Made by a program: the position numbers and the translations under genes. The notes beneath the pieces were generated by a model that was not told the origin of the DNA, did not search any database, and saw only the letters and a list, made by a program, of their open reading frames with translations. A stretch of DNA of 64,000 bases. It comes from Capsulimonadaceae bacterium (GTDB taxonomy: Bacteria; Armatimonadota; Armatimonadia; Armatimonadales; Capsulimonadaceae). Shown in pieces: positions 1-54,014 of the stretch. The stretch is from positions 2,944,001 to 3,008,000 of the forward strand of contig OZ244065.1 of NCBI GenBank assembly GCA_965215505.1. The letters are read 5' to 3'. The first letter of the stretch is position 1. Each line of letters opens with the position of its first letter.

Positions 1-48
1 ATAATCGGCGGTCTGATTATCCGCCGCATGGTGGCGCTGGACTTGTAG
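1..48 (+). CDS. 3' end of a type II secretion system F-family (TadB-like) protein, partial
   Basis: Frame 1 reads IIGGLIIRRMVALDL*, resembling a TadB C-terminus; lies upstream of tadC. Confidence 0.6.
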   Translation: MIGGLIIRRMVALDL

Positions 49-103
49 GAGGAGCCTGCCGGCCTTACGCAGAACTTGTCCGGGGGAGGCAGATCGCCCC
101 CCG

Positions 104-190
104 GCCCCGATTCTGGGGGAACCGGAGGGGAAGGGCGAACACAAGGTTCGCCCCTACCTTGTTCCTTCCCTACTCCCCCAGAATCGGGGC
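104..190. repeat. Composite palindromic element: 17-bp inverted repeat enclosing a GTAG-type REP
   Basis: gccccgattctggggga (104-120) / tcccccagaatcggggc (174-190); internal 133-157 reads GTAGGGGCGAACCTTGTGTTCGCCC on the minus strand. Confidence 0.8.
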
Positions 191-220
191 GGGGACTTCC
201 TTATCCATCAGGAGTACCAG

Positions 221-685
221 ATGCCGGACAATGACGTATGGCCGCCGAAACCCGATCTGCCTGACCCGCTGACCGAGTACGACGAGGTGATTGCGGCGAA
301 ACTTGCGGCGCCTTCTCCGGCTATAACGGGGCGGCTCACGCTGGTCAAAGTCTTGCGCGAACAAGAAGGGCTGGATTTGCGCCAGGCAATTGCCCTTGCG
401 AACAACTACTGTGACAGGCATGGGCTATTTGTCAGCGGCAGAGTCACCAAGGCATTTGGCTGGGGAGGCTGCGGGATGGCTTTCGCGGCTTTGTGCCTAG
501 CCATTTTCAGCGGCTATCTGTCGATAGTCCGCCTGGAAGCGGTTCTGAGTCAGCCACATCACCATGCGGCGCTCATGGCGTTGGACAGGCAGGAGATGGT
601 GGTCGCGGCAGCGATTGTGTTGCTGGTGATTGGAAGCGGAATTATCTCTGTCACTATCCGAGGAATCAGCCGAAGGGGGGGATAA
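221..685 (+). CDS. Hypothetical membrane protein with an L7/L12-CTD-like helical motif and two TM segments
   Basis: AGGAG RBS upstream; LVKVLREQEGLDLRQAIALA motif; two hydrophobic stretches; N-terminal DVWPPKP. Confidence 0.65.
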   Translation: MPDNDVWPPKPDLPDPLTEYDEVIAAKLAAPSPAITGRLTLVKVLREQEGLDLRQAIALANNYCDRHGLFVSGRVTKAFGWGGCGMAFAALCLAIFSGYLSIVRLEAVLSQPHHHAALMALDRQEMVVAAAIVLLVIGSGIISVTIRGISRRGG

Positions 686-688
686 GCT

Positions 689-1636
689 ATGCCCATGCCA
701 CTACTGCTAATTCTTGCCCTAGCCTTTCTCGTCGGCGCGCTCCTCACGCTCGCCGTGACCGGCCTCCTCGGCGCGGAGCGGGAGGCGGTCGCGCGGCGGC
801 TGGATAACCTAGCTCGGCCCGCCGCATCCGCCGACCCGCTGCCGTCGCTGGCGGACGCGGAACTGGAAGGGACCTGGCGGGAGCGGCTGTGGCAGCCTAA
901 CTTGCGGCGGCTGGCGCGGATGGGGGCGCGGCTGACCCCGGCGGGGGCCTCGGACCGACTGCGGGCGTCGCTGGCGAAGGCGGGGAACCCCGCCGGGCTG
1001 GGGGCGCGGGAATTCGGGGGCCTGCGCGTGGTCGGCGTGGCGGTTTGCCTGTGCCTGATCGGGCCGATGTGCCTCTTCGTGCCGTCACTCGGGGCGCGGG
1101 TACTGCTGCTCGCGCTGGGGGCGTTGGTCGGGCTGACCCTGCCGGAGACTCTGCTGGAGCGGGCGATCCGGCGGCGGCAGGCGCGCATCCGTCGCGCATT
1201 GCCGGACGCGATTGATCTGCTGGTGGTGAGCGTCGAGGCGGGGATGGGGCTGGACGGGGCGATGGCGAAGGTGACGGAGAAGATGCGCGGGCCGCTCGCC
1301 GACGAGCTGACGCGGGCGCGGAACGAGATGCTTTTGGGCAAGACACGCGGGCAGGCCTTACGGGACATGGCGGCGCGGCTGGAGATGGGGGAGGTGAAGA
1401 CGTTCGTCGCGGCGATCTACCAGGCCGACCAGCTTGGGACGAGCATCGCGCGGGTCCTGCGGGCACAGAGCCAGATGGCGCGGGCGGCGCGGGTGCAGCG
1501 GGTGCGGGAGCAGGCGGCACGTCTGCCGGTGACGATGCTGTTCCCGCTGGTCCTGTTCATCTTCCCGGCGATCTTCGTCGTCCTGCTCGGCCCGAGCCTG
1601 ATGCGGCTGATGGCGACGTTAGGGCACATGAAGTAA
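689..1636 (+). CDS. tadC: Type II secretion system F-family protein, TadC-like
   Basis: LPDAIDLLVVSVEAGMGLD, QADQLGTSIARVLRAQS and LFPLVLFIFPAIFVVLLGP motifs. Confidence 0.9.
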   Translation: MPMPLLLILALAFLVGALLTLAVTGLLGAEREAVARRLDNLARPAASADPLPSLADAELEGTWRERLWQPNLRRLARMGARLTPAGASDRLRASLAKAGNPAGLGAREFGGLRVVGVAVCLCLIGPMCLFVPSLGARVLLLALGALVGLTLPETLLERAIRRRQARIRRALPDAIDLLVVSVEAGMGLDGAMAKVTEKMRGPLADELTRARNEMLLGKTRGQALRDMAARLEMGEVKTFVAAIYQADQLGTSIARVLRAQSQMARAARVQRVREQAARLPVTMLFPLVLFIFPAIFVVLLGPSLMRLMATLGHMK

Positions 1637-1665
1637 CTGACGCTACGCTGACTTCTCCGGGGGTC

Positions 1666-2981
1666 GTTAGTGTAAAATGTTTTCTGTAAATTGATGGCCT
1701 GAAGTAGTAGGTCAGGGAGTATTCTTGGAGTTACCACACAACAAGGAAACTACCCATGACCTACCACAACGATTCTACTCTGTCCGATGCCCTTTTGGAG
1801 CAACTTTCGGCGCAAGGGATGGAGGCCCTGCCCGATCTGTTCCGTGTCCTGCTCAACGCCGCCATGCAGATCGAGCGACAGAAGCACCTGGGCGCGGCCC
1901 CGCATGAACGGACAGAGCAGCGCACGGGCCACGCCAACGGCTACAAGGACAAGACGCTTGCCACCCGCATCGGCCAGATTACTGTCGCCGTCCCTCAGGT
2001 GCGTGAGGGAGGCTTCTACCCGCAGAGCCTGGAACGGGGCACCCGCTCTGAGCGCGCCTTGAAGCTTTCGCTGGCCGAGATGTATGTGCAGGGCGTCTCC
2101 ACCCGCAAGGTGGCCGCCATCACCGAGCAGTTGTGCGGGTTCTCGGTCAGCAGCGGCCAGGTTAGCCAGGCGGCCAAGGAACTCGATGCCACCTTAGAAG
2201 CCTGGCGCACCCGCCCTCTGACGGCTTGCCCGTATCTGCTGCTGGATGCCCGCTACGAGAAGGTACGCCAGGGCGGCATCGTGCAGGATGCCGCCGTCCT
2301 CATTGCCATGGGCGTGGATGAGGCGGGCAAACGCTCCATTCTGGGCGTCTCTGTCGCCTTGTCCGAGAAAGAGGTCCACTGGCGGCAGTTCCTGCAAAGC
2401 CTGACCCAGCGCGGCCTGTGCGGAGTGAGGCTGGTCGTCAGCGATGCCCATGAAGGGCTAAAGGCGGCACGGATGGCGGTGCTGGGCAGCATCCCGTGGC
2501 AGCGATGCCAGTTCCACTTGCAGCAGAACGCCTCCGCTTATGTCCCCAGGCAGGACAGGAAGGCATCCGTGGCCGCAGACATTCGGGCCGTCTTCAACGC
2601 CCAGGACAGAGCCGAAGCCGACGCGCTCTTGAAGCGGGCGGTGCAGAAGTACGAAGCGGCGGCACCCAAGCTTGCGGCCTGGCTGGAAGAGAACCTGCCC
2701 GAAGGCTTGACGGTGTTTGCGTCTCCTGAGCCGCATCGCCGCCTGCTGCGGACTACCAACGGCGTCGAGCGCGTCAATCGTGAGGTGCGCCGCAGGACGC
2801 GGGTAGTGAGCATCTTCCCGAACGAGGCATCGTGCCTGCGGCTGGCGAGCGCCCTGCTGATGGAGATCAGCGACGACTGGCAGGCAGGCAAAGCCTACCT
2901 GACGTTCGCAGAACAAGACTAGCGAAGCCGACGAGACCGCGAGGACGCTCCCAGCTTTTACAGAAACGGCTTGATACTATC
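1666..2981 (+). mobile_element. Complete IS256-family insertion sequence (1316 bp)
   Basis: Imperfect 25-bp TIRs gttagtgtaaaatgttttctgtaaa (1666-1690) and tttacagaaacggcttgatactatc (2957-2981); 8-bp direct repeat CGGGGGTC at 1658-1665 and 2982-2989. Confidence 0.92.
1756..2922 (+). CDS. IS256-family (Mutator-like) DDE transposase
   Basis: MYVQGVSTRKV, LDARYEKVR, VSDAHEGL, WQRCQFH and RTTNGVERVNRE motifs; intact ORF. Confidence 0.95.
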   Translation: MTYHNDSTLSDALLEQLSAQGMEALPDLFRVLLNAAMQIERQKHLGAAPHERTEQRTGHANGYKDKTLATRIGQITVAVPQVREGGFYPQSLERGTRSERALKLSLAEMYVQGVSTRKVAAITEQLCGFSVSSGQVSQAAKELDATLEAWRTRPLTACPYLLLDARYEKVRQGGIVQDAAVLIAMGVDEAGKRSILGVSVALSEKEVHWRQFLQSLTQRGLCGVRLVVSDAHEGLKAARMAVLGSIPWQRCQFHLQQNASAYVPRQDRKASVAADIRAVFNAQDRAEADALLKRAVQKYEAAAPKLAAWLEENLPEGLTVFASPEPHRRLLRTTNGVERVNREVRRRTRVVSIFPNEASCLRLASALLMEISDDWQAGKAYLTFAEQD

Positions 2982-3014
2982 CGGGGGTCAAGAACCGCTC
3001 GACTCCAAAAGCCT

Positions 3015-3623
3015 TCAATCCCCCTGTCCGTCATAGTGCCAATCCGTCATGATGGAACCATCACTCTGCTGCTTGACATGATTATCCGCGAAGACTCCTT
3101 GAAGGACGTATTCTTGCGGCGGTCCATGCCAGTACCCCGCATCCTCGCAGAGCGGCATCATTGCGGGGGACAAATCGTTGCTGTCGGTTTCAGCAAATTC
3201 ATTGTAGCGATAGCTACTGCCCCATGTCAGGAAATCATTGTTTGGGAACAGATCTGACCCTTGCTGCGGTGGCCTCCCTGTGTCAGACATACATCGGAAC
3301 ACCTGGCGAGATCGAAGGTAAGGCTGCAAGACATCGGTATAAAGGGGGATTGAAGGGATGTCCTTCTTTGAATAGGCTGACGTTGCCGCATCAAATCGAG
3401 ACAAGGGATTGACAGCATGAGGATAGATCGTGTCATACTCTTGGGCGTACTGTGTGATAGCAATACCTATCTGTTTGAGATTGTCCAAACAGGCGGATTG
3501 TCGTGCTTTCTCTCTCGCTCGGACAAACACTGGAAAGAGGATTGCCGCCATGATGGAAATGATCGCTGTCACAACGAGCAATTCAATGATGGTGAATCCT
3601 CGTAGCTTCTTGTTATGCATCAT
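3015..3623 (-). CDS. Prepilin-type N-terminal cleavage/methylation (DUF1559-like) protein
   Basis: [44 protein letters not shown]; divergent H-X9-DG-like tail (WH...VFADNHVK). Confidence 0.9.
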   Translation of the reverse strand: MMHNKKLRGFTIIELLVVTAIISIMAAILFPVFVRAREKARQSACLDNLKQIGIAITQYAQEYDTIYPHAVNPLSRFDAATSAYSKKDIPSIPLYTDVLQPYLRSRQVFRCMSDTGRPPQQGSDLFPNNDFLTWGSSYRYNEFAETDSNDLSPAMMPLCEDAGYWHGPPQEYVLQGVFADNHVKQQSDGSIMTDWHYDGQGD

Positions 3624-3630
3624 TGTTTCT

Positions 3631-4596
3631 TCACTGGAGCAGTGCCGTCACCGGAACTGTGATGCGTTGTTCAATAGGGTCGTTAGTCTGTAAAACGATG
3701 TTGCCGCTCATAATACGGTTTGAATGGTCGCTAGTGCATGTTGCCGTGAGTAGAACGTGTCCACCCTGTCTCTCAACATGAGCCGAAACAGAGTGTGGGC
3801 AGGAGAGTACTGTGATCTGCGGGATTCTCTTGCCTGTGTTAATCATCGTCGAAATAGTTCGTGTAATTCTCACACTGTCAAAAAGCAGTTGTGGCTTCTG
3901 GACCGTGTACTTACCAGTTGCGTTGAAATGGACCGACACCTCGACATCTTCAATGCTAGGAACATCCGTGGTAATGTTCAGTTTATCAAAACGCTCCCCT
4001 GATGTCTTCATGGGAGCAGAAGTCACTACAAGGCTCGTCTGCTCGGCAGACTGCTCAATAGTATGTACTCGTAGTTCTGAGTCCGCACTGACGTGCGTGA
4101 CATGAAAGTGAGTGGTCGGTTTCTGTGAGCGCAGCATGATGGTTTGGCTTGCTGTCTGTCCTAGTCGCAAATTCCCAAAATCCAGGGCGTTACGGCTAAT
4201 AGAGACATACGGAAACACATGAGCCTTTACAGGGATGTTGATCTCTGTCTTGTCTACCAACTTTAGCACGATGAACCGTAAGACATCGCCGTTGTAACTC
4301 TCCCCCGAGAAACGCACATGTAATGGGATGCTACCCTTCGGCTCGACGGTATCGGCATCCAGGCTGGCCTGTGTACAGCCACATGATGTGGCCACCGATT
4401 GAATGCGTATAGCTTCGCCGGATCTGTTAATCAGGCGTATGTCTTTGCTGCTAACCGACAACTGAGCCACATCCCCAAAATCAACGTCATGGGGCAGGCA
4501 AGACAGTTCCTTTTGTGATTGGTAGTGGGCGTATGCACCGGCCAATGCCGCAGCGGTGGTAATCAGGGCGGCTATGAAAACACTTTTCGTCTGCAT
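3631..4596 (-). CDS. DUF1573-domain (Ig-like repeat) secreted protein
   Basis: N-terminal hydrophobic signal; DFG...SVATSCGCT motif; about three beta-sandwich repeats. Confidence 0.8.
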   Translation of the reverse strand: MQTKSVFIAALITTAAALAGAYAHYQSQKELSCLPHDVDFGDVAQLSVSSKDIRLINRSGEAIRIQSVATSCGCTQASLDADTVEPKGSIPLHVRFSGESYNGDVLRFIVLKLVDKTEINIPVKAHVFPYVSISRNALDFGNLRLGQTASQTIMLRSQKPTTHFHVTHVSADSELRVHTIEQSAEQTSLVVTSAPMKTSGERFDKLNITTDVPSIEDVEVSVHFNATGKYTVQKPQLLFDSVRITRTISTMINTGKRIPQITVLSCPHSVSAHVERQGGHVLLTATCTSDHSNRIMSGNIVLQTNDPIEQRITVPVTALLQ

Positions 4597-4602
4597 ATAA
4601 GT

Positions 4603-5178
4603 TTACTGGACTTGACCCCTGTATCCCATCTTCCCAAGCGATCTGAGTGCCATCCTCTTCACATCTGGGTCGGGGTCCGCAGCGGCTCTCAGCAGGGGAG
4701 TTAAAGAGCTTTTTTGTCGTAGTTCCCCTAAAAGGCGCGCTTCAGTAAGGCGCACGAGGGATTCGCTACTCGTGAGAGCTGGCAGGGTGGTTTGGGCGAT
4801 ATATTCCTTCTTGGCGTCAGGGATGGATGCGTTCATGTTCGCAGTCAACAGTGTAGCACAAGCCTTCGACTGAACGATGGCATCCGTGGGTCCGGCCGTG
4901 GCTCTAGACAGAGTCTCTATGTCCTGGTCGGAAAGTGTATGGCTTTCCCGGTACTTGAGTTGAATGTCCATCACGGTTTTTAGATCAGACGTGCTGCTTA
5001 CGACGCCCGTGGAGCCAAGATACTGCACCGTTTTGGCGATGCGCGCCTTCTCCACCTTTTCATGCTGCTGTCGTTGCATGGTTCCGACACTGTACGCAGT
5101 GATGCCGCCAAGCATGAATACGCCAATTATGACAGACACGATAATGGATGTTTTTTTTGACACCAGCGAACCCCTCAT
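4603..5178 (-). CDS. Membrane-anchored HEAT-repeat protein
   Basis: N-terminal TM; C-terminal LVRLTEARLLGEL...DPDPDVKRMALRSLGKM HEAT repeats. Confidence 0.75.
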   Translation of the reverse strand: MRGSLVSKKTSIIVSVIIGVFMLGGITAYSVGTMQRQQHEKVEKARIAKTVQYLGSTGVVSSTSDLKTVMDIQLKYRESHTLSDQDIETLSRATAGPTDAIVQSKACATLLTANMNASIPDAKKEYIAQTTLPALTSSESLVRLTEARLLGELRQKSSLTPLLRAAADPDPDVKRMALRSLGKMGYRGQVQ

Positions 5179-5240
5179 CTTCCCGAAGCCCTGTTACTAT
5201 GTCTATACAACAGGGCCTCGGATTCCTGGCTCACTAACGG

Positions 5241-5516
5241 CTATGCCGGGCTGCTTACGCACTTCTTGTAAGCAGCAGTGATGCAGTTCTGGAGGGCTGT
5301 GCCCGAGGCGCAGCCTGAACAGCCGCGGTTGGTGCCATCTGATCCATCGGCGCAGTCCTGGCAAAGCGTTGGGTCCGTGGTCCCGCTGGCGCATTTGCTA
5401 CCGACCGTACCTCCAGAGCAGCTAGCGTAGACCGCATGAACGAACATTGTGAACCCTAATGCCAGCAGGGCAGTTGTAGTCGCAGTGGCTCGTCGCCTTG
5501 AGCGTATTGAGAGCAT
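5241..5516 (-). CDS. Small secreted cysteine-rich peptide (8 Cys)
   Basis: AGGA RBS; basic/hydrophobic signal ending AVYA; mature part C-x8-C-x9-C-x2-C-x10-C-x2-C-x8-C-x7-C. Confidence 0.7.
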   Translation of the reverse strand: MLSIRSRRRATATTTALLALGFTMFVHAVYASCSGGTVGSKCASGTTDPTLCQDCADGSDGTNRGCSGCASGTALQNCITAAYKKCVSSPA

Positions 5517-5549
5517 GATTTGTCTTCCTTTTTGGGAGAAATGCTAGAG

Positions 5550-5744
5550 TTAATGCGTGTGGCTCGGTGGTGCCACTTCTTCCTGACCAGTCGCTTCACA
5601 CCCACAATCCTGTTGCACCACGATATGTGCAGAGCGGTTACGCGCAAAAGCATAAGCGGACGCCGTGGCAATGACGAGGACGGCTGTGAGTGCGAATAAT
5701 GTAAATGCTACTGCCTTTCTTTTTATTAGTGTGTTGTATGACAT
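5550..5744 (-). CDS. Small secreted or membrane peptide with a CGC motif
   Basis: MSYNTLIKRK + hydrophobic stretch + AYA, then DCGCE; co-oriented with the downstream cassette. Confidence 0.55.
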   Translation of the reverse strand: MSYNTLIKRKAVAFTLFALTAVLVIATASAYAFARNRSAHIVVQQDCGCEATGQEEVAPPSHTH

Positions 5745-5770
5745 AGCCCAGTCCCTGATCTGTGTTAATG

Positions 5771-5805
5771 GTAACATTGTTACATGACGGCATGAAATCT
5801 GTCAA
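5771..5805 (-). promoter_or_regulatory. Possible sigma70 promoter of the cassette with an overlapping palindromic operator
   Basis: Perfect TTGACA on minus strand (5805-5800); weak -10; GTAACA-T-TGTTAC palindrome at 5771-5783. Confidence 0.4.
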
Positions 5806-5822
5806 GAACATTGCATTCGGCA

Positions 5823-5940
5823 AAAATCGGGGCGAAAGACCGATAAAATCGGGGCGAAAGACCGATAAAATCGGGGCGAAAGACCGATAAAATCGGGGCG
5901 AAAGACCGATAAAATCGGGGCGAAAGACCGATAAAATCGG
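5823..5940. repeat. Perfect tandem repeat, 5 x 22 bp (AAAATCGGGGCGAAAGACCGAT) plus 8-bp partial
   Basis: Units start at 5823, 5845, 5867, 5889, 5911; no spacers. Confidence 0.97.
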
Positions 5941-6015
5941 TTCAAGTTATGAACACTAACTGAGTGAGGCGGATAGTACGTTTGATGCGTCTCGTAAATG
6001 TGCCAAAATAGTGCT

Positions 6016-6597
6016 GTGGGAAAGACGAAAGACATCCGCACGCGGGGGGCGAAGCCGCAGGACCCCGACGAGCGGGCGGCGCGGGTCAAGGCCGCCGTGC
6101 GGGATTTGGAACGGATCGGGGCCGCCTTCACGGTGGCCGAGGTCGCCGAGCGGGCGGGCATCTCGCGGGCGACATTGTACCGCAGCCCGGACCTGCGCGC
6201 CCTGGTCGGGGCGAAAGGCGACGGGCCGCGCGTGGTGGACGCGGCGGTTCACGACAAGGTGTGCGCGCGGCACGAGGCGCAGAAGGCGAAGACGCGCGCC
6301 CTCCGGCGCGAGCTGGCCGAGGCCGAGGCGAGCTGGGAAGAAATGCGCGAGCGCGCCCGGACGGCCGAGTCGAAGCTGGCCGCCGCCGAGCGCCGGGCGG
6401 AGGTCCTCGCCTCGCAGGCGCGGGGCGGCATCGGCGGGTCGCTGGGGGCGGTCTCGGTCGCGCTGGGGCCGGAAGAGATGCGCCGCGCCCGGCGCGTCCT
6501 GGCCCGCGCCCTGCACCCGGATTTGTTCGCGCAGGACGGCGCGACGGCGGCTTTGGCGACGGAACTATTGAAGACGCTGAACGCGCTGGCGGAATAG
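6016..6597 (+). CDS. HTH (DUF6262/TnpC-like) + coiled-coil + J-domain-like (HPD) protein
   Basis: FTVAEVAERAGISRATLYR HTH; long coiled coil; C-terminal RRVLARALHPD. GTG 6016 preferred (alternative ATG 5998). Confidence 0.75.
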   Translation: MGKTKDIRTRGAKPQDPDERAARVKAAVRDLERIGAAFTVAEVAERAGISRATLYRSPDLRALVGAKGDGPRVVDAAVHDKVCARHEAQKAKTRALRRELAEAEASWEEMRERARTAESKLAAAERRAEVLASQARGGIGGSLGAVSVALGPEEMRRARRVLARALHPDLFAQDGATAALATELLKTLNALAE

Positions 6598-6646
6598 CAG
6601 AAACGAGGCGGCAGGAAAACCGCCGCCGCTTGGGGAAACAGCCGCC

Positions 6647-7117
6647 ATGCCTGACCTACTCGTATCCCTCTACAAGCTGCCGCCCCGCGAGACCGGCGCG
6701 GCCTCCGTCCGCGACGCGGGCGTCATCATCCGCCGCGCCAACCCGTTCGAGCAGACCCCGGTCGGCGACTTCATCCGCACCCACTTCAGCGTGGGCTGGG
6801 CTGAGGAGATGGCCGTCACCTTCGCCCGCCAGCCGATCACCAATTTCATCGCCATCGAGGACAAGAAGGTCATCGGCTTTGCCGCCTTCGAGTCCACCCG
6901 CAAGGCCTTCTTCGGGCCGACCGGCGTGGACCACGCCCACCGGGGGCGGGGCATCGGGCGTGCCCTGCTGATCGAGTCGCTGTGGGGCTTGTCCGACCTG
7001 GGCTACGCCTACGGCATTATCGGCGCGGCGGGGCCGGTGGAGTTCTACAAGAAGGCCGTCGGCGCGGTCGTCATCCCCGATAGCTGGCCAGGCGTCTACG
7101 CGGATCTGCTGCGTTAG
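6647..7117 (+). CDS. GNAT family N-acetyltransferase
   Basis: FGPTGVDHAHRGRGIGRALL acetyl-CoA motif. Confidence 0.9.
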   Translation: MPDLLVSLYKLPPRETGAASVRDAGVIIRRANPFEQTPVGDFIRTHFSVGWAEEMAVTFARQPITNFIAIEDKKVIGFAAFESTRKAFFGPTGVDHAHRGRGIGRALLIESLWGLSDLGYAYGIIGAAGPVEFYKKAVGAVVIPDSWPGVYADLLR

Positions 7118-7123
7118 GAAAGA

Positions 7124-7147
7124 GGGCGCGATGAATCGCGCCCCTAC
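7124..7147. repeat. GTAG-type REP hairpin
   Basis: Minus strand GTAGGGGCGCGATTCATCGCGCCC; identical copy at 46724-46747. Confidence 0.9.
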
Positions 7148-8082
7148 TGGCCTGACGTGTCTGCCGCCGGGGCGGGCGGGGCGGCCTGCGGAGTGGATTG
7201 GGGCGCGGCAGGGGCAGCGTCTTGAGCGGCGGCGTCGGGCGGCAGGTTGATGATGGCCCCGCGCGGGACGCCGACGATCTCGATGTCCTTGATGTGCCGG
7301 GACTTGACCAGGCGCGGGGTCAGCGAGGCGGCGCGGATGTGGGCAGCCTTCGCCTCGGCCTGGGCCTTCAGAACGGACTTCTGGTTGACGATCTGCTGGA
7401 GTTGGAGGTTGAGCTGGGACAGCTTCAAGTTCTGCTGGGCCGCCAGCCGCGAGCGCAGGGCGACCTTAGTGGCGTCGTCCGGATAAATGGCCCGGATGCG
7501 GACCTCATCAATGACAATCGAGTCCGGGTTGAAGCGGTCGTTCAGCTCTTTCAGCGCGTAGGTGGCCGCCGCCTGTTTGCCGTCGCCGCTCATGTTCTGG
7601 GCCGTATTCGCCAGCCCGAAGGCGTCCACGATGGCCTGGCGGAAGGCGGGGCGGAGCTGCGCCTCCTCGAAGTTGCCGAAGTCCGAAAATTGGTTCCGGT
7701 ACTTGCCGTAAAGCGCGGTGATGCGCTCCGGGTGGTCGGCGTCCCAGGCGATGTGGTAGGTGATGCTGGTATCTACTCTGAGTGTGTTGGAGGAGAGCGT
7801 GTTGACGAGGACGCTGTCGTCCTGCTCGGCGTGCGCGCCTTCGCCCGAACCCTGCACCATCGTGTAGGTGCGCTCGTAGGTGGGGATCTCGATCAGCTCG
7901 TTGCCCGAGAAGGGCGGCTGGGCGTTGAACCCGGCGTGGCGGATGCGCGGGTCCACGCGGCCCGTGTAGTGGTTGATGACTAGGCCGACGTTGCCGGTCT
8001 TGACGACGAACCCGCTGGTGTTGCGGGCGAGCAGCAGGCCGACGACGAGGATGATGCCGAGGGCGATGAACAGTGTTTTCAT
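7144..8082 (-). CDS. SPFH (prohibitin/band 7) domain protein
   Basis: N-terminal TM, VKTGNVGLVIN, IVIDEVRIRAI, C-terminal coiled coil AQAEAKAA. Confidence 0.85.
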   Translation of the reverse strand: MKTLFIALGIILVVGLLLARNTSGFVVKTGNVGLVINHYTGRVDPRIRHAGFNAQPPFSGNELIEIPTYERTYTMVQGSGEGAHAEQDDSVLVNTLSSNTLRVDTSITYHIAWDADHPERITALYGKYRNQFSDFGNFEEAQLRPAFRQAIVDAFGLANTAQNMSGDGKQAAATYALKELNDRFNPDSIVIDEVRIRAIYPDDATKVALRSRLAAQQNLKLSQLNLQLQQIVNQKSVLKAQAEAKAAHIRAASLTPRLVKSRHIKDIEIVGVPRGAIINLPPDAAAQDAAPAAPQSTPQAAPPAPAADTSGQ

Positions 8083-8091
8083 TGATTTGTC

Positions 8092-8979
8092 TTATTTGTT
8101 GAGCAGGCCCATGAGCTGGTCGGAGGGCAGGTACAGCTTATGCACCTGGCCCAGTTCCTGGTCCTGGACGTAGAGGTCGGTCAGGGTGCTGTTTTGCAGG
8201 CGGTTGACGGTGGCCTCAGCGGTGGCCTGTTGGAGCAGGGTCTGGTTGTCGAATCCCTGCTGCTGCAAGGCGAGTTTGGCGTTGTCTATCTCCTGCATCT
8301 TGGACAGCGTGGTCGAGAGCAGGTCCTTGCTGGCCTGGTCCTGCTCGATGCCACGGATCATCAGATTAGAAAAGACGACGCCGCGCCCGCCCCACTCGTC
8401 ATTGAGCGTTTTTAATGCCCCCTGTTCCGCGCGCTGCTTGCCCGCCGTGGTCAGGGCGGTGGCGGTGTCCATGTCGCCGATGGCGTAGTTGATCGCGCCC
8501 TTGACAGCAGGCTCCAGGTTGACAGCCTCGAACTGGCGCAGGTTGGCGAACTGGTCCTGGTAGGCGCGGTACAGGTCGTCGGCCTTGTCCGGATCAATGC
8601 GGTACTGGGCGGACACGTCCACTTGCAGCATGTTGGAGGCCGTGTTGACCTGGACGGCCCCGGTCGGGTCGGCGGATGTCAGCGACAGGGTCCGCTGGGC
8701 GGTGGGCACCTCGATGACCGTCTCCCAGACGCCCTGCCAGTGTGTCCCTGCGGGCATCAGGTCCTTCTCGATCGTGCCGTGGTAGTTGTTGATGACCAGG
8801 CCGACGTTGCCCGGCGCGATGTGTGTCGGCCCGGCCATGTGCCCGCCGCGCTGGAGCGAGAGGTTCAGGAACAGGAACCCGCCTAAAAGCAGTAATCCTA
8901 GAAGGCCCACTGTCCGTGTGCGCGGCGAGAGTGGCGGGGTGTGTTTCAGTGTGATGGTGTGTTTCGGACTGGTCGCCAT
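8092..8979 (-). CDS. SPFH (prohibitin/band 7) domain protein, paralog
   Basis: N-terminal TM, IAPGNVGLVIN, LQVDVSAQYRI, QATAEATVNRL. Confidence 0.85.
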   Translation of the reverse strand: MATSPKHTITLKHTPPLSPRTRTVGLLGLLLLGGFLFLNLSLQRGGHMAGPTHIAPGNVGLVINNYHGTIEKDLMPAGTHWQGVWETVIEVPTAQRTLSLTSADPTGAVQVNTASNMLQVDVSAQYRIDPDKADDLYRAYQDQFANLRQFEAVNLEPAVKGAINYAIGDMDTATALTTAGKQRAEQGALKTLNDEWGGRGVVFSNLMIRGIEQDQASKDLLSTTLSKMQEIDNAKLALQQQGFDNQTLLQQATAEATVNRLQNSTLTDLYVQDQELGQVHKLYLPSDQLMGLLNK

Positions 8980-9006
8980 TGTTCAGCGCCCTCTTTTCTA
9001 TCGTTT

Positions 9007-9315
9007 CTATCGTTGCGTGTTTTCTTGACCGTTGTTCTCTTGTTTGGTCTTCTGGTACTCCACCTCGGGCGTCACGAATGAACCCAGGTGGCAGCCCGGA
9101 CAGCCCGTATCGGGCAAGGGGCCTTTGAATTTTTTGTCGCAGTTCAGGCAGCGGAGCCATTCGCCCTTGCGCTGCAAGCGGGCCTCGCGCTCGGCGGCCA
9201 CGCGGGCCGCTTCGGCCTCGGCCTTGTCGCGCGTGACGCTGCCGCGCAGGGACCAGAGCCAGAGGCCCACCATCACGAGGCCCGCCGCGAACATCCCGTC
9301 GAACACAAGTTGCAT
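9007..9315 (-). CDS. Small membrane-anchored zinc-ribbon protein
   Basis: TM, short coiled coil, CLNC...CPGC. Confidence 0.7.
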   Translation of the reverse strand: MQLVFDGMFAAGLVMVGLWLWSLRGSVTRDKAEAEAARVAAEREARLQRKGEWLRCLNCDKKFKGPLPDTGCPGCHLGSFVTPEVEYQKTKQENNGQENTQR

Positions 9316-9339
9316 CTGTCAGTCTTTCTCTTATCATAT

Positions 9340-9376
9340 TGACACGCGCGGGCCGAAAAAGTTGCCGCGCGTGTCA
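9340..9376. promoter_or_regulatory. 12-bp perfect inverted repeat in a divergent intergenic region
   Basis: tgacacgcgcgg (9340-9351) - 13 nt - ccgcgcgtgtca (9365-9376). Confidence 0.5.
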
Positions 9377-9436
9377 CATCACGTCAATTTGGGTAAACCG
9401 TTTCTGTTTTCGTCCCCGCAAGAAAGGACCGCCTGC

Positions 9437-10462
9437 ATGGACCATTCCATCGCGCCCCTGCCGCCCGGCACGCCCGCCCCTGATTTTACCCTGTCCGGCC
9501 CGCCCGATGCTCCCGTTTCCCTGTCCGGCCTGCGCGGGCAGCCCATCGTCCTGGCCTTCACCCCGTCCGGCTGGGACCCGGCCCGCGCGACTCAGATGGA
9601 GCAGTACGGCAAAGTTCTGTCCGAGGCATTCGCCGACGAGCAGATCCGGTTCCCGCTGCTGACCGACGCTGCGGTCGCGGAGCAGTACGGCGTCGCGGGC
9701 CGGCAGGCGTTGTTCGTCGTGGACGCCGAGGGCGTCATCCGCTGGAGCCATGTCGCGCCCGCCGGGCTGGCCCCGCGCGCCGAGGAGCTTCTAGCTGGGC
9801 TGGACAGCCTGCGCCCCCGGCCCCGGAGCGGCGGGCTATCGCGACGCGAGTTCCTGGCGACGACCCTGGCCGCCGCGTTCGCCCTGGCCCTGCCGCTGGG
9901 CGCGGGCCGGGCCGAGGCGCAGGGGCCGGGGACCGTCGCACCCGGCCCAGCGGCTTCGCCGCCTGCGGGGACAATGCCCGTGACGCTTACGGTCAATGGG
10001 ACCGAACACGCCCTGAACATTGACCCGCGCGTCTCGCTGCTGGACGCCCTGCGCGAGCGGATCGGCCTGACCGGCTCCAAGAAGGGCTGCGACCACGGTC
10101 AGTGCGGGGCCTGCACGGTGCAGGTTGACGGGCGGCGCATCAACTCGTGCCTGTCGCTTGCCGTCGCCAACCAGGGCAAGAAGATCACGACCATCGAGGG
10201 GCTGGCGCACGGCGACGACCTGCACCCGATGCAGGCGGCGTTCCTGGCCCACGACGGCTTCCAGTGCGGCTACTGCACGTCCGGGCAGATCGTGTCCGCC
10301 GTGTCCCTGCTGGATGAGCCGGTCGGGCCGACCGATGCCGACGTGCGCGAGAGCATGAGCGGCAACCTGTGCCGCTGCGGGGCGTACCCGAACATCCTCG
10401 CCGCCATCCAGGATGTGCGCTCGGCCAGGGGAACGGAGGGGAATAAGAATGTACCCGTTTGA
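9437..10462 (+). CDS. paoA: 2Fe-2S subunit of aldehyde oxidoreductase (PaoA/YagT-like) with N-terminal redoxin-like domain and internal Tat motif
   Basis: AGGA RBS; APDFTL/FPLLTD/RQALFVVD redoxin fold; SRREFL; GCDHGQCGAC, QCGYC, NLCRC. Confidence 0.85.
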   Translation: MDHSIAPLPPGTPAPDFTLSGPPDAPVSLSGLRGQPIVLAFTPSGWDPARATQMEQYGKVLSEAFADEQIRFPLLTDAAVAEQYGVAGRQALFVVDAEGVIRWSHVAPAGLAPRAEELLAGLDSLRPRPRSGGLSRREFLATTLAAAFALALPLGAGRAEAQGPGTVAPGPAASPPAGTMPVTLTVNGTEHALNIDPRVSLLDALRERIGLTGSKKGCDHGQCGACTVQVDGRRINSCLSLAVANQGKKITTIEGLAHGDDLHPMQAAFLAHDGFQCGYCTSGQIVSAVSLLDEPVGPTDADVRESMSGNLCRCGAYPNILAAIQDVRSARGTEGNKNVPV

Positions 10463-53737: not shown

Positions 53738-54014
53738 GCCACGGGTTGAAAGCCGAGGCTCCGAAAGGCCCACCGTCCAGGGACGTTAAGACAGGGACAC
53801 AGGACAGAAGCGGAGGCAGGACAGAAGCGGAGGCAGGACAGAAGCGGAGGCAGGACAGAAGCGGAGGCAGGACAGAAGCGGAGGCAGGACAGAAGCGGAG
53901 GGCGGGGTCCCCCGCCCCTACGCAATTATGTCCTGCCTCTCTCACGTCCTCTGGATTGTACTGGCAGCCCCAGAAGACGCTGGGGACTTCGGTGCCTCGG
54001 GTTTCAACCCGTGG
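53738..54014. repeat. REPIN/MITE-like element, family A copy 2, with internal 6 x 17-bp tandem repeat
   Basis: TIR gccacgggttgaaagccgaggc / gcctcgggtttcaacccgtgg; caggacagaagcggagg x6 (53800-53901); GTAG REP ~53900-53921. Confidence 0.9.

Follow-up and report, generated by a model that had tools for sequence, protein, structure and literature searches.

Five co-oriented open reading frames (ORFs), all intact as judged by ORF reading, occupy the minus strand at positions 3015-5744 of a 64,000-nucleotide stretch of the genome of a Capsulimonadaceae bacterium (contig OZ244065.1; the whole stretch is called the window herein). With a probability of roughly 40%, we read them as a horizontally inserted accessory module that provides cargo and partner proteins to type IV filament machinery, of the type IV pilus or type II secretion system (T4P/T2SS-like) kind, a mechanism proposed from gene linkage. 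The constant core of the module is the pair formed by an anchored extracytoplasmic HEAT-repeat protein and a short pseudopilin of the DUF1559 family, to which genes for thiol-redox proteins and for small cysteine-containing proteins are variable additions. Recurrence was counted over 27 loci holding a member of the HEAT family, and in 15 of them, belonging to two families of the order and to family f8, a short pilin gene lies directly downstream of the HEAT gene or one gene further on, which bears out the view of an earlier note on this DNA that these genes belong together in a module with its own pseudopilin, and shows that such a module recurs. Throughout the text, G000 is the window's own genome and the other G labels are related genomes of the phylum.

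Organization of the cassette and its core pair

Read along the minus strand, the cassette begins with a CGC-containing mini-ORF (Cys1) at 5550-5744, of 64 amino acids (aa), or 75 aa if started at 5777, and continues with an ORF for a small secreted protein with eight cysteines (the 8-Cys ORF, or Cys2; 5241-5516, 91 aa), a HEAT-repeat protein with an N-terminal anchor (4603-5178, 191 aa), an exported DUF1573 protein with three Ig-like domains (3631-4596, 321 aa) and the short DUF1559 pseudopilin (3015-3623, 202 aa), which matches both Pfam and NCBIfam profiles. The translation of each of the five begins with a hydrophobic export or anchor segment, and the DUF1573 gene is separated from the HEAT gene by 6 nt and from the pseudopilin gene by 7 nt, so that the arrangement first noticed, namely five co-oriented exported or anchored products with the last three genes close-set, is present in all its parts. 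The lower-GC character that had been ascribed to this DNA is equally clear, as the GC content is 51.3% over 3015-5777 compared with 66.5% for the 6.18-Mb genome, and an equally low value is reached in just 0.35% of genome windows of the same size.

The HEAT protein belongs to family PF13646 (39.2 bits against a cut-off of 27.7). Its AlphaFold2 (AF2) model, with a predicted local distance difference test score (pLDDT) of 91.7, consists of a stalk helix (residues 6-56) followed by a seven-helix solenoid that runs through residue 183, and its nearest folds in the PDB are alphaRep/HEAT-like binders (E 8e-4, probability 1.00 in Foldseek). A hidden Markov model (HMM) of the family has members in 29 of the 71 genomes of the order, plus family f8. 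Because at least 7 of the 32 distinct family proteins carry lipoprotein-type signal peptides (five by regular expression, seven by eye), the solenoid is taken to be extracytoplasmic. The anchored proteins encoded upstream of the G000 pilin paralogues A, B and D were considered as further HEAT relatives but are not homologous to the family, with hhalign probabilities of 0.4-5.9%, and were left uncounted.

The pseudopilin has a class III leader according to both PF07963 (N_methyl, 30.9 bits against 21.2) and TIGR02532 (26.4 bits against 16.3). This is a PilD-type GFTxxE leader, short and basic, with G at -1, F at +1 and E at +5, followed by the hydrophobic alpha-1 helix. The DUF1559 profile PF07596 is matched with 32.7 bits against a cut-off of 23.3, over profile positions 2-35 of 268 only. 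Two cysteines, C45 and C111, are invariant in all 16 pilins aligned. The AF2 model (pLDDT 76.6) shows a long N-terminal helix (12-63) plus a sheet, and its best structural matches in the PDB, although weak, are type IV pilins; in sequence searches of the PDB with the window proteins, matches were confined to the pilin helix and to HYDIN-type Ig repeats. Among the 57 PF07596 matches in the window genome, it is one of six that belong to a distinct short subfamily and score at least 171 bits, as opposed to at most 110 for the remaining ones. Of 301 genomes of the phylum, 165 possess this subfamily; a wider profile scan of genome contigs, whose best named matches were metagenome-assembled genomes of Armatimonadetes/Armatimonadia, returned 78 DUF1559 loci, none of which reached 150 bits for the short subfamily. 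An H-X9-DG C-terminal motif is typical of DUF1559 pseudopilins, according to the description of TIGR04294. The window pilin has WHG, 13 residues and DN (FADNHVK), its cassette relatives have WHG, a longer spacer and DG, and TIGR04294 is not among the NCBIfam matches of the window proteins. Identity as GspG (TIGR01710) was rejected, at 33.6 bits against a cut-off of 88.85 and with the N-terminal 62 residues alone covered.

Recurrence and composition of the module

Among the loci examined, the exact five-gene set is found in the window only. The expectation that the combination would recur in other genomes therefore holds for the HEAT-pilin module with its redox and small Cys additions, but not for the five genes as such. 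A thiol-redox-type gene is present in 10 of the 27 HEAT loci, and three kinds of protein fill its slot. It is DUF1573 in the window, G008, G004, G023 and G033, and G042:C220 has a fragment of it; in site C of G000, G042:C226 and G054, a CxxC-bearing AhpC/TSA redoxin takes its place, and in G193 a DsbA-like protein does so. A small Cys protein with a signal peptide is encoded in at least six loci (the window, G008, G004, G023, G033 and G193), which represent at least four independent arrangements, each with an exported redox protein, either DUF1573 or DsbA-like.

The cassettes of the congeners G008, G004 and G023 encode DUF1573 and a secreted small protein with two Cys as well as HEAT and a short pilin; they adjoin metG, have lowered GC, and their small ORF is conserved with fewer nonsynonymous than synonymous polymorphisms per site (pN < pS). 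G000 has no copy of this metG-type cassette. The order in G033 is small Cys protein, HEAT and DUF1573, as in the window, and then an ABC ATPase, while that in G193 is small 6-Cys protein, HEAT, pilin and DsbA-like protein, where the small protein can be aligned with the G008 type through two invariant cysteines.

Several further loci were observed in the course of this comparison. The window's genome holds a second low-GC islet (0.48-0.52; L021 4000-5797, that is G000:C1:4509000-4510797) with genes for HEAT, for an AhpC/TSA redoxin that has CPIC and lacks a signal peptide, and for a short pilin, an arrangement also seen in G042:C226 and G054:C202. The G033:C251 locus (L017 3966-15296) is a long co-oriented cluster. 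It comprises two pilin-like genes, a gene for a 1219-aa membrane protein and one for a 121-aa protein that has a signal peptide, 12 Cys and a hydrophobic tail, and it continues with HEAT, DUF1573, the ABC ATPase, a membrane protein of 557 aa and a Wzy_C protein. In the G004:C44 cassette (L003/L014), an in-frame TAA interrupts the DUF1573 frame and leaves an ORF of 264 aa, and in G042:C297 (L061/L090) an in-frame TGA splits the HEAT frame into two ORFs; these broken frames may represent decay of cassette genes or assembly errors.

Linkage to pilus machinery

HEAT homologues are also found within or beside genes for pilus machinery. One lies between T2SSE and T2SSF with a PilD-type peptidase adjoining (G019), another adjoins a PilT-like ATPase (G014), and a third adjoins T2SSF and pilins (G017). 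The G019:C9 operon, of the order PilB-HEAT-PilC-PilD-pilin, also includes a DUF559 endonuclease-like gene (L097 3886-4287). G000 itself encodes PilB, PilC and PilD, approximately 830 kb away from the cassette.

The machinery closest to the cassette is another one. A complete tad operon, with genes for an A24 peptidase, TadE, Tad, RcpC, a secretin, a ParA-like protein, T2SSE and two T2SSF proteins, ends at window position 1636 with tadC (689-1636), and the cassette stands tail-to-tail with tadC, about 55 nt apart in the form that lacks the insertion sequence (IS) described below. This closeness is what could suggest that the cassette serves the adjacent tad (Flp) pilus, a reading we regard as very improbable: the leader of the pseudopilin is of the GFTxxE N_methyl and not of the Flp/TadE type, Flp or TadE domains are matched by none of the five cassette proteins in Pfam or NCBIfam, the tad operon is kept without the cassette in nine of nine congeners, and the 99 proteins encoded around HEAT genes at 14 other loci include PilB/C/D/T-type families but no tad family. 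The adjacency to tad pointed out in the earlier note is thus correct as to position, the cassette being at the 3' end of the operon, but a functional tad link looks coincidental given the PilD-type leader and the PilB/C/D/T-type neighbours elsewhere.

DUF1573 as a candidate thiol-redox protein

The DUF1573 protein matches PF07610 with 48.4 bits against a cut-off of 26.1, along with Ig domains of the HYDIN/ASH type. The first of its three Ig-like domains is the DUF1573 domain, with the motif SCGCT, in which S71, C72, C74 and T75 are invariant in nine sequences. In the family tables of two reviews, PMC9312934 and PMC13188914, DUF1573 is given as a selenoprotein family with UGC in the place of CGC; the window gene has Cys and no in-frame TGA. 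The OS_HP2 selenoprotein family (NF041425) was tried and rejected (31.7 bits against a cut-off of 100). Because selenocysteine forms exist and the slot of this gene is common to redoxin and DsbA-like genes, the CGC may be redox-active, and we infer that the DUF1573 protein is a candidate thiol-redox protein. The filling of one slot by three kinds of thiol-redox protein is the first argument from genomic context, beyond the selenoprotein listings, for a redox-active CGC in DUF1573. Neither a HEAT nor a pilin gene lies alongside the second DUF1573 gene of G000 (C1:1169402).

The small cysteine-rich ORFs

The 8-Cys ORF encodes a signal peptide ending in AYA, followed by approximately 60 mature residues with 8 Cys, and is preceded at 7 nt by an AGGA-type ribosome-binding site. 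A homologue of the same length, P0010 (91 aa), was found among 1.84 billion representatives with a library-wide E of 1.3e-5 (BLASTP, 32/89 identical); it aligns all eight mature cysteines, shares the AYA cleavage site and is the sole clear homologue. By these sequence features the 8-Cys ORF is a real gene. A second phmmer match, the 1331-aa repeat protein P0011, was taken as spurious, and the 8-Cys protein was matched neither by a word-indexed protein search nor in the ESM Atlas. Two tandem secreted 8-Cys ORFs, with a signal peptide like that of the window protein, were observed as a weak match (E 0.001) on a 2.2-kb contig of an f8 genome (L209 462-1093, G413:C213). The CGC mini-ORF has no family match in Pfam or NCBIfam; it sits in the slot held by DUF1573 in the G008-type cassettes and, from a similarity read by eye, may be a relic or a mini-version of the DUF1573 N-terminus, its status as a gene being unproven. 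Of the two small Cys peptides originally proposed, then, the 8-Cys one is upheld by P0010 but the mini-ORF has its position and motif to commend it and is unproven.

These small ORFs are also where two other readings of the cassette differ from ours. According to the first, which we consider rather unlikely, the functional unit comprises HEAT, DUF1573 and the pseudopilin only, that is, a variant pilin with its own helpers for assembly or folding, in which the redox protein serves the pilin disulfide and the small ORFs are passengers, with Cys2 as an independent secreted protein and Cys1 as no gene at all. The invariant cysteine pair of the pilins would fit such a unit, as would the fact that no small Cys ORF was noted in three redoxin cassettes and six HEAT-pilin pairs, the want of a family match for Cys1, the failure of gene callers to call Cys2 and the non-homology of the small proteins of different cassette types. 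However, a small signal-peptide Cys protein accompanies an exported redox protein in every one of the six loci and at least four arrangements mentioned above, and the small ORFs of the window are spaced by just 33 nt (mini-ORF to 8-Cys ORF) and 62 nt (8-Cys ORF to HEAT), with no terminator-like site on the coding strand within the window cassette.

According to the second, the small Cys-rich protein would be a bacteriocin-like toxin or a signal, matured by DUF1573, with the anchored HEAT protein as immunity and the pilin or an ABC transporter as exporter. The G033 cluster lends itself to this interpretation, since an ABC ATPase and a large membrane protein come there after the 121-aa Cys-rich protein, HEAT and DUF1573, and so do the fast evolution of the small and HEAT genes (34-54% identity, compared with 80% for the pilin) and the horizontally mobile, strain-specific nature of the cassette. 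Nevertheless, HEAT homologues occur within core pilus operons that have no small Cys gene whatsoever, no bacteriocin, leader or peptidase family was matched, and the ABC linkage was seen once, all of which makes this explanation improbable.

Insertion and origin of the cassette

In nine of nine congener loci examined, tadC is followed directly by a helix-turn-helix (HTH) gene and then by a GNAT gene; the gaps measure 18-230 nt and contain no cassette or IS, and the cassette of the window is therefore an insertion. Each of 24 genomes of the genus carries a single copy of the HTH/DUF6262-like gene (5998-6597). The inserted DNA extends approximately over 1640-5970, between tadC and the HTH gene, and amounts to a cassette of about 3.0 kb plus a 1.3-kb IS. 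Alignment of the gap with those of the three closest congeners showed that the conserved stretch before the HTH gene is kept at about 5975-6006, and that a native hairpin 3' of tadC, present in the relatives, is missing from the window.

As to the source, a tree of 46 short pilins places the window pilin as sister (100/92) to the pilin of G327, a genome of family f8, outside the window's order, and nests this pair in an f8/f27 clade (98/90). The unusual FADNHVK ending is common to the window pilin and the G327 pilins, and the G327 locus has a GC of 54%. The best match of the DUF1573 protein among 60 relatives is 25% identical; one 78%-identical relative, P0002, comes from a 13.9-kb contig of a read-archive assembly (5.8 billion clustered proteins), no close relatives appeared in a wider scan of genome contigs, and a metagenome scan yielded matches of 29-31% identity only. 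A foreign origin by horizontal insertion is supported by these comparisons, and the horizontal acquisition that had been proposed at the outset is strengthened by the empty site in the congeners and by the grouping of the pilin with those of another family. The G327:C78 locus (L197 511-7431) was observed to hold two 231-aa pilins, the nearest relatives of the window pilin, with a 351-aa membrane protein between them; two His-rich proteins, both with an arginine-rich signal peptide, flank the pilins, and a 420-aa Cys-rich ORF precedes.

The IS, at 1666-2979 on the plus strand (transposase 1756-2922), belongs to the IS256 family, with 369 bits for PF00872 and 368.9 bits, against a cut-off of 150, for NF033543, and has imperfect inverted repeats at its ends. 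It is flanked by a 10-bp direct repeat (1656-1665 and 2980-2989), and a joint without the IS (1655->2980), equivalent to an empty IS site, occurs in one low-depth contig of run X9 (depth 3.8). Since the target was duplicated and the IS-less joint exists, the element arrived separately and later, outside the cassette proper, and is a simple, polymorphic insertion. On the other side, upstream of the cassette, a 22-bp perfect tandem repeat (5.4 copies, 100% identical) covers 5823-5940; the tadC-HTH gaps of the three closest congeners lack it, and it is hence not native to the site. The IS and the repeat thus flank the cassette, as had been said of them, but neither is a mobilising boundary; the IS is separate and the repeat lies inside the insert, on the promoter side. 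The repeat is one of 89 perfect or near-perfect arrays (period 12-40 bp, at least 3.5 copies, at least 95% identity) genome-wide, many of which are 100% identical and have periods not divisible by 3. The idea of the repeat as a pilin-linked switch was discarded, as three arrays lie within 300 bp of a pilin gene where 1.4 are expected, and 81 of 500 shuffles gave as many. Arrays of this sort also precede the cassette of G008 (16 bp x 5.8) and site C of G000 (18 bp x 4.1), and the window has a second perfect array at 53800-53901 (17 bp x 6.0).

Proposed function and its weighing

Under the preferred reading of the cassette as an accessory module of T4P/T2SS-like machinery, the 8-Cys protein would be exported by its own signal peptide, and the CGC site of DUF1573 would form or reshuffle disulfides in it, and perhaps also in the C45-C111 pair of the pilin. 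The resident PilD-type peptidase would process the prepilin for assembly by the PilB/PilC machine, the membrane-held HEAT solenoid would bind the pseudopilin, the small protein or both and load them, and the small protein would finally be displayed on the (pseudo)pilus or released by it. Binding, redox activity, the route of export and expression of the cassette are predictions from gene linkage, and the chaperone or immunity roles and the export of a peptide by the pseudopilin that had been suggested at the outset are likewise readings of the sequence. The rapid divergence, low GC and gene shuffling seen in these loci would fit a function that is exchangeable and exposed at the surface, for example adhesion, recognition or antagonism.

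A number of observations weigh against this interpretation. With regard to the module, the redoxins lack signal peptides and may be cytoplasmic; the G008, G004 and G023 cassettes are kin and count as one event rather than three; 27 of 27 stand-alone short-pilin loci elsewhere in the phylum lack a HEAT gene within 1.5 kb, which means that the two need not go together; and the HEAT-linked pilins do not form one clade (three changes on the tree). With regard to the cargo, the small proteins of different cassette types have no detectable homology, and their designation as cargo is based on position and features; the single homologue P0010 lies on a 1.5-kb contig without gene context, 400 other genomes of the phylum, searched in six frames, gave marginal 8-Cys matches only, and the 8-Cys ORF is not called as a gene in the protein collection. 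Finally, the window pilin is on a long branch (1.5), which makes its placement unsure, and no RNA runs are found among the sequencing runs that carry the stretch.

The low GC, the adjacent IS and this same lack of RNA runs could even be taken to mean that unrelated genes were brought together by chance in a junk island, but the HEAT-pilin pair, together with its redox and small-protein additions, is met with again in different genera and families and in a second order, all the ORFs are intact, and near-identical copies of the cassette are present in sequencing runs of several studies (0-1 differences among four runs compared, none diverged), and such a juxtaposition, already disfavoured, is hardly credible.

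Beyond the accessory-module reading itself, we put forward as a tentative and rather doubtful extension that Armatimonadota-like bacteria have exchangeable cargo-loading cassettes for type IV filaments. In these, hypervariable mini-proteins rich in disulfides would be folded and passed on to the pilus machine, to be displayed or released, by an extracytoplasmic HEAT adaptor, a pseudopilin dedicated to the task and a thiol-redox enzyme. If this were true, DUF1573, which is often the redox enzyme, would be a new disulfide catalyst of a non-thioredoxin kind, and the expanded DUF1559 pseudopilin families would gain a concrete role as adaptors of specific cargo. An unexplained hallmark of Armatimonadota and of the Planctomycetes-Verrucomicrobia-Chlamydiae (PVC) phyla is their wealth of DUF1559 pseudopilin genes, of which each genome has dozens to hundreds. 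The cassette offers a small, testable case, as it joins a pseudopilin to a fixed partner family, the anchored HEAT proteins also found within core pilus operons, and has a disulfide-rich secreted mini-protein as candidate cargo. Should the links hold, they would imply surface diversification by the swapping of 3-kb modules and a new accessory component of type IV filament systems.

Other features of the region

A promoter-like site (TTGACA, 18 nt, TG-AACAAT) is located at 5776-5805 on the minus strand. Promoter-like sites in the region are not above chance (three found, 2.6 expected), and only the position of this one, between the repeat and the ATG at 5744, is suggestive; the earlier ATG of the mini-ORF, at 5777, falls within its -10 element. 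No Rfam family was matched in positions 1-9000 of the window. Further on, in the intervals 7144-8979 and 9032-10462, two adjacent SPFH/Band 7 genes on the minus strand stand beside a 476-aa ORF with AhpC/TSA-redoxin and 2Fe-2S ferredoxin-type matches, which may be two genes read as one.

Comparison with known systems

No description of a cassette of this kind was found in the full-text literature on DUF1573, DUF1559 or Armatimonadetes pilins, in agreement with the initial impression that the system is undescribed. The Verru_Chthon cassette (TIGR02596, TIGR02599) resembles it in being a multi-gene cassette of prepilin-leader proteins from a neighbouring group of phyla; membership was rejected, at 15.7 bits against 70 for TIGR02596 and 13.5 against 256.5 for TIGR02599, with the leader only covered. 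Closer are the expanded DUF1559/PulG-like families of the Armatimonadetes and PVC phyla, which share with the window pilin the class III leader and the conserved Cys pair, and of which the 79 PulG-like genes given for Fimbriimonas ginsengisoli in PMC4072686 are an example. The window pilin differs in belonging to a distinct short subfamily tied to HEAT, redox and small-protein genes. Thus, the large pseudopilin families of the phylum were already known, and the linkage of the cassette pilin to these other genes appears to be new as far as the literature found goes.

Periplasmic thiol-disulfide oxidoreductases, such as DsbA and the TlpA/ResA-type redoxins, fold pilins and secreted proteins. The DsbA-like gene of G193 and the three AhpC/TSA redoxins fill the slot held by DUF1573 in the window, although DUF1573 is an Ig-like domain with a CGC and has no thioredoxin fold.

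The nearest functional parallel is with CofB-CofJ and TcpB-TcpF, in which a pilin-like protein and a small Sec-exported protein are encoded together, the latter needing both the pilin and the pilus machine for its display or secretion and binding, with its N-terminal segment, the trimeric minor pilin at the pilus tip. These pairs of a type IVb (T4b) minor pilin and a secreted partner belong to CFA/III (colonization factor antigen III) of enterotoxigenic Escherichia coli (ETEC) and to the toxin-coregulated pilus (TCP) of Vibrio cholerae, respectively (PMC6048534, PMC9565799 and PMC10120004). The searches made gave no sequence similarity to them, and the differences are considerable: the pilin here is a DUF1559 pseudopilin and no T4b minor pilin, those pairs are without anchored HEAT and thiol-redox partners, and the window cassette is detached from the genes of its machine. 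Even so, by functional analogy only, a cassette that sets a small Sec-exported protein beside a pilin-like protein may work likewise.

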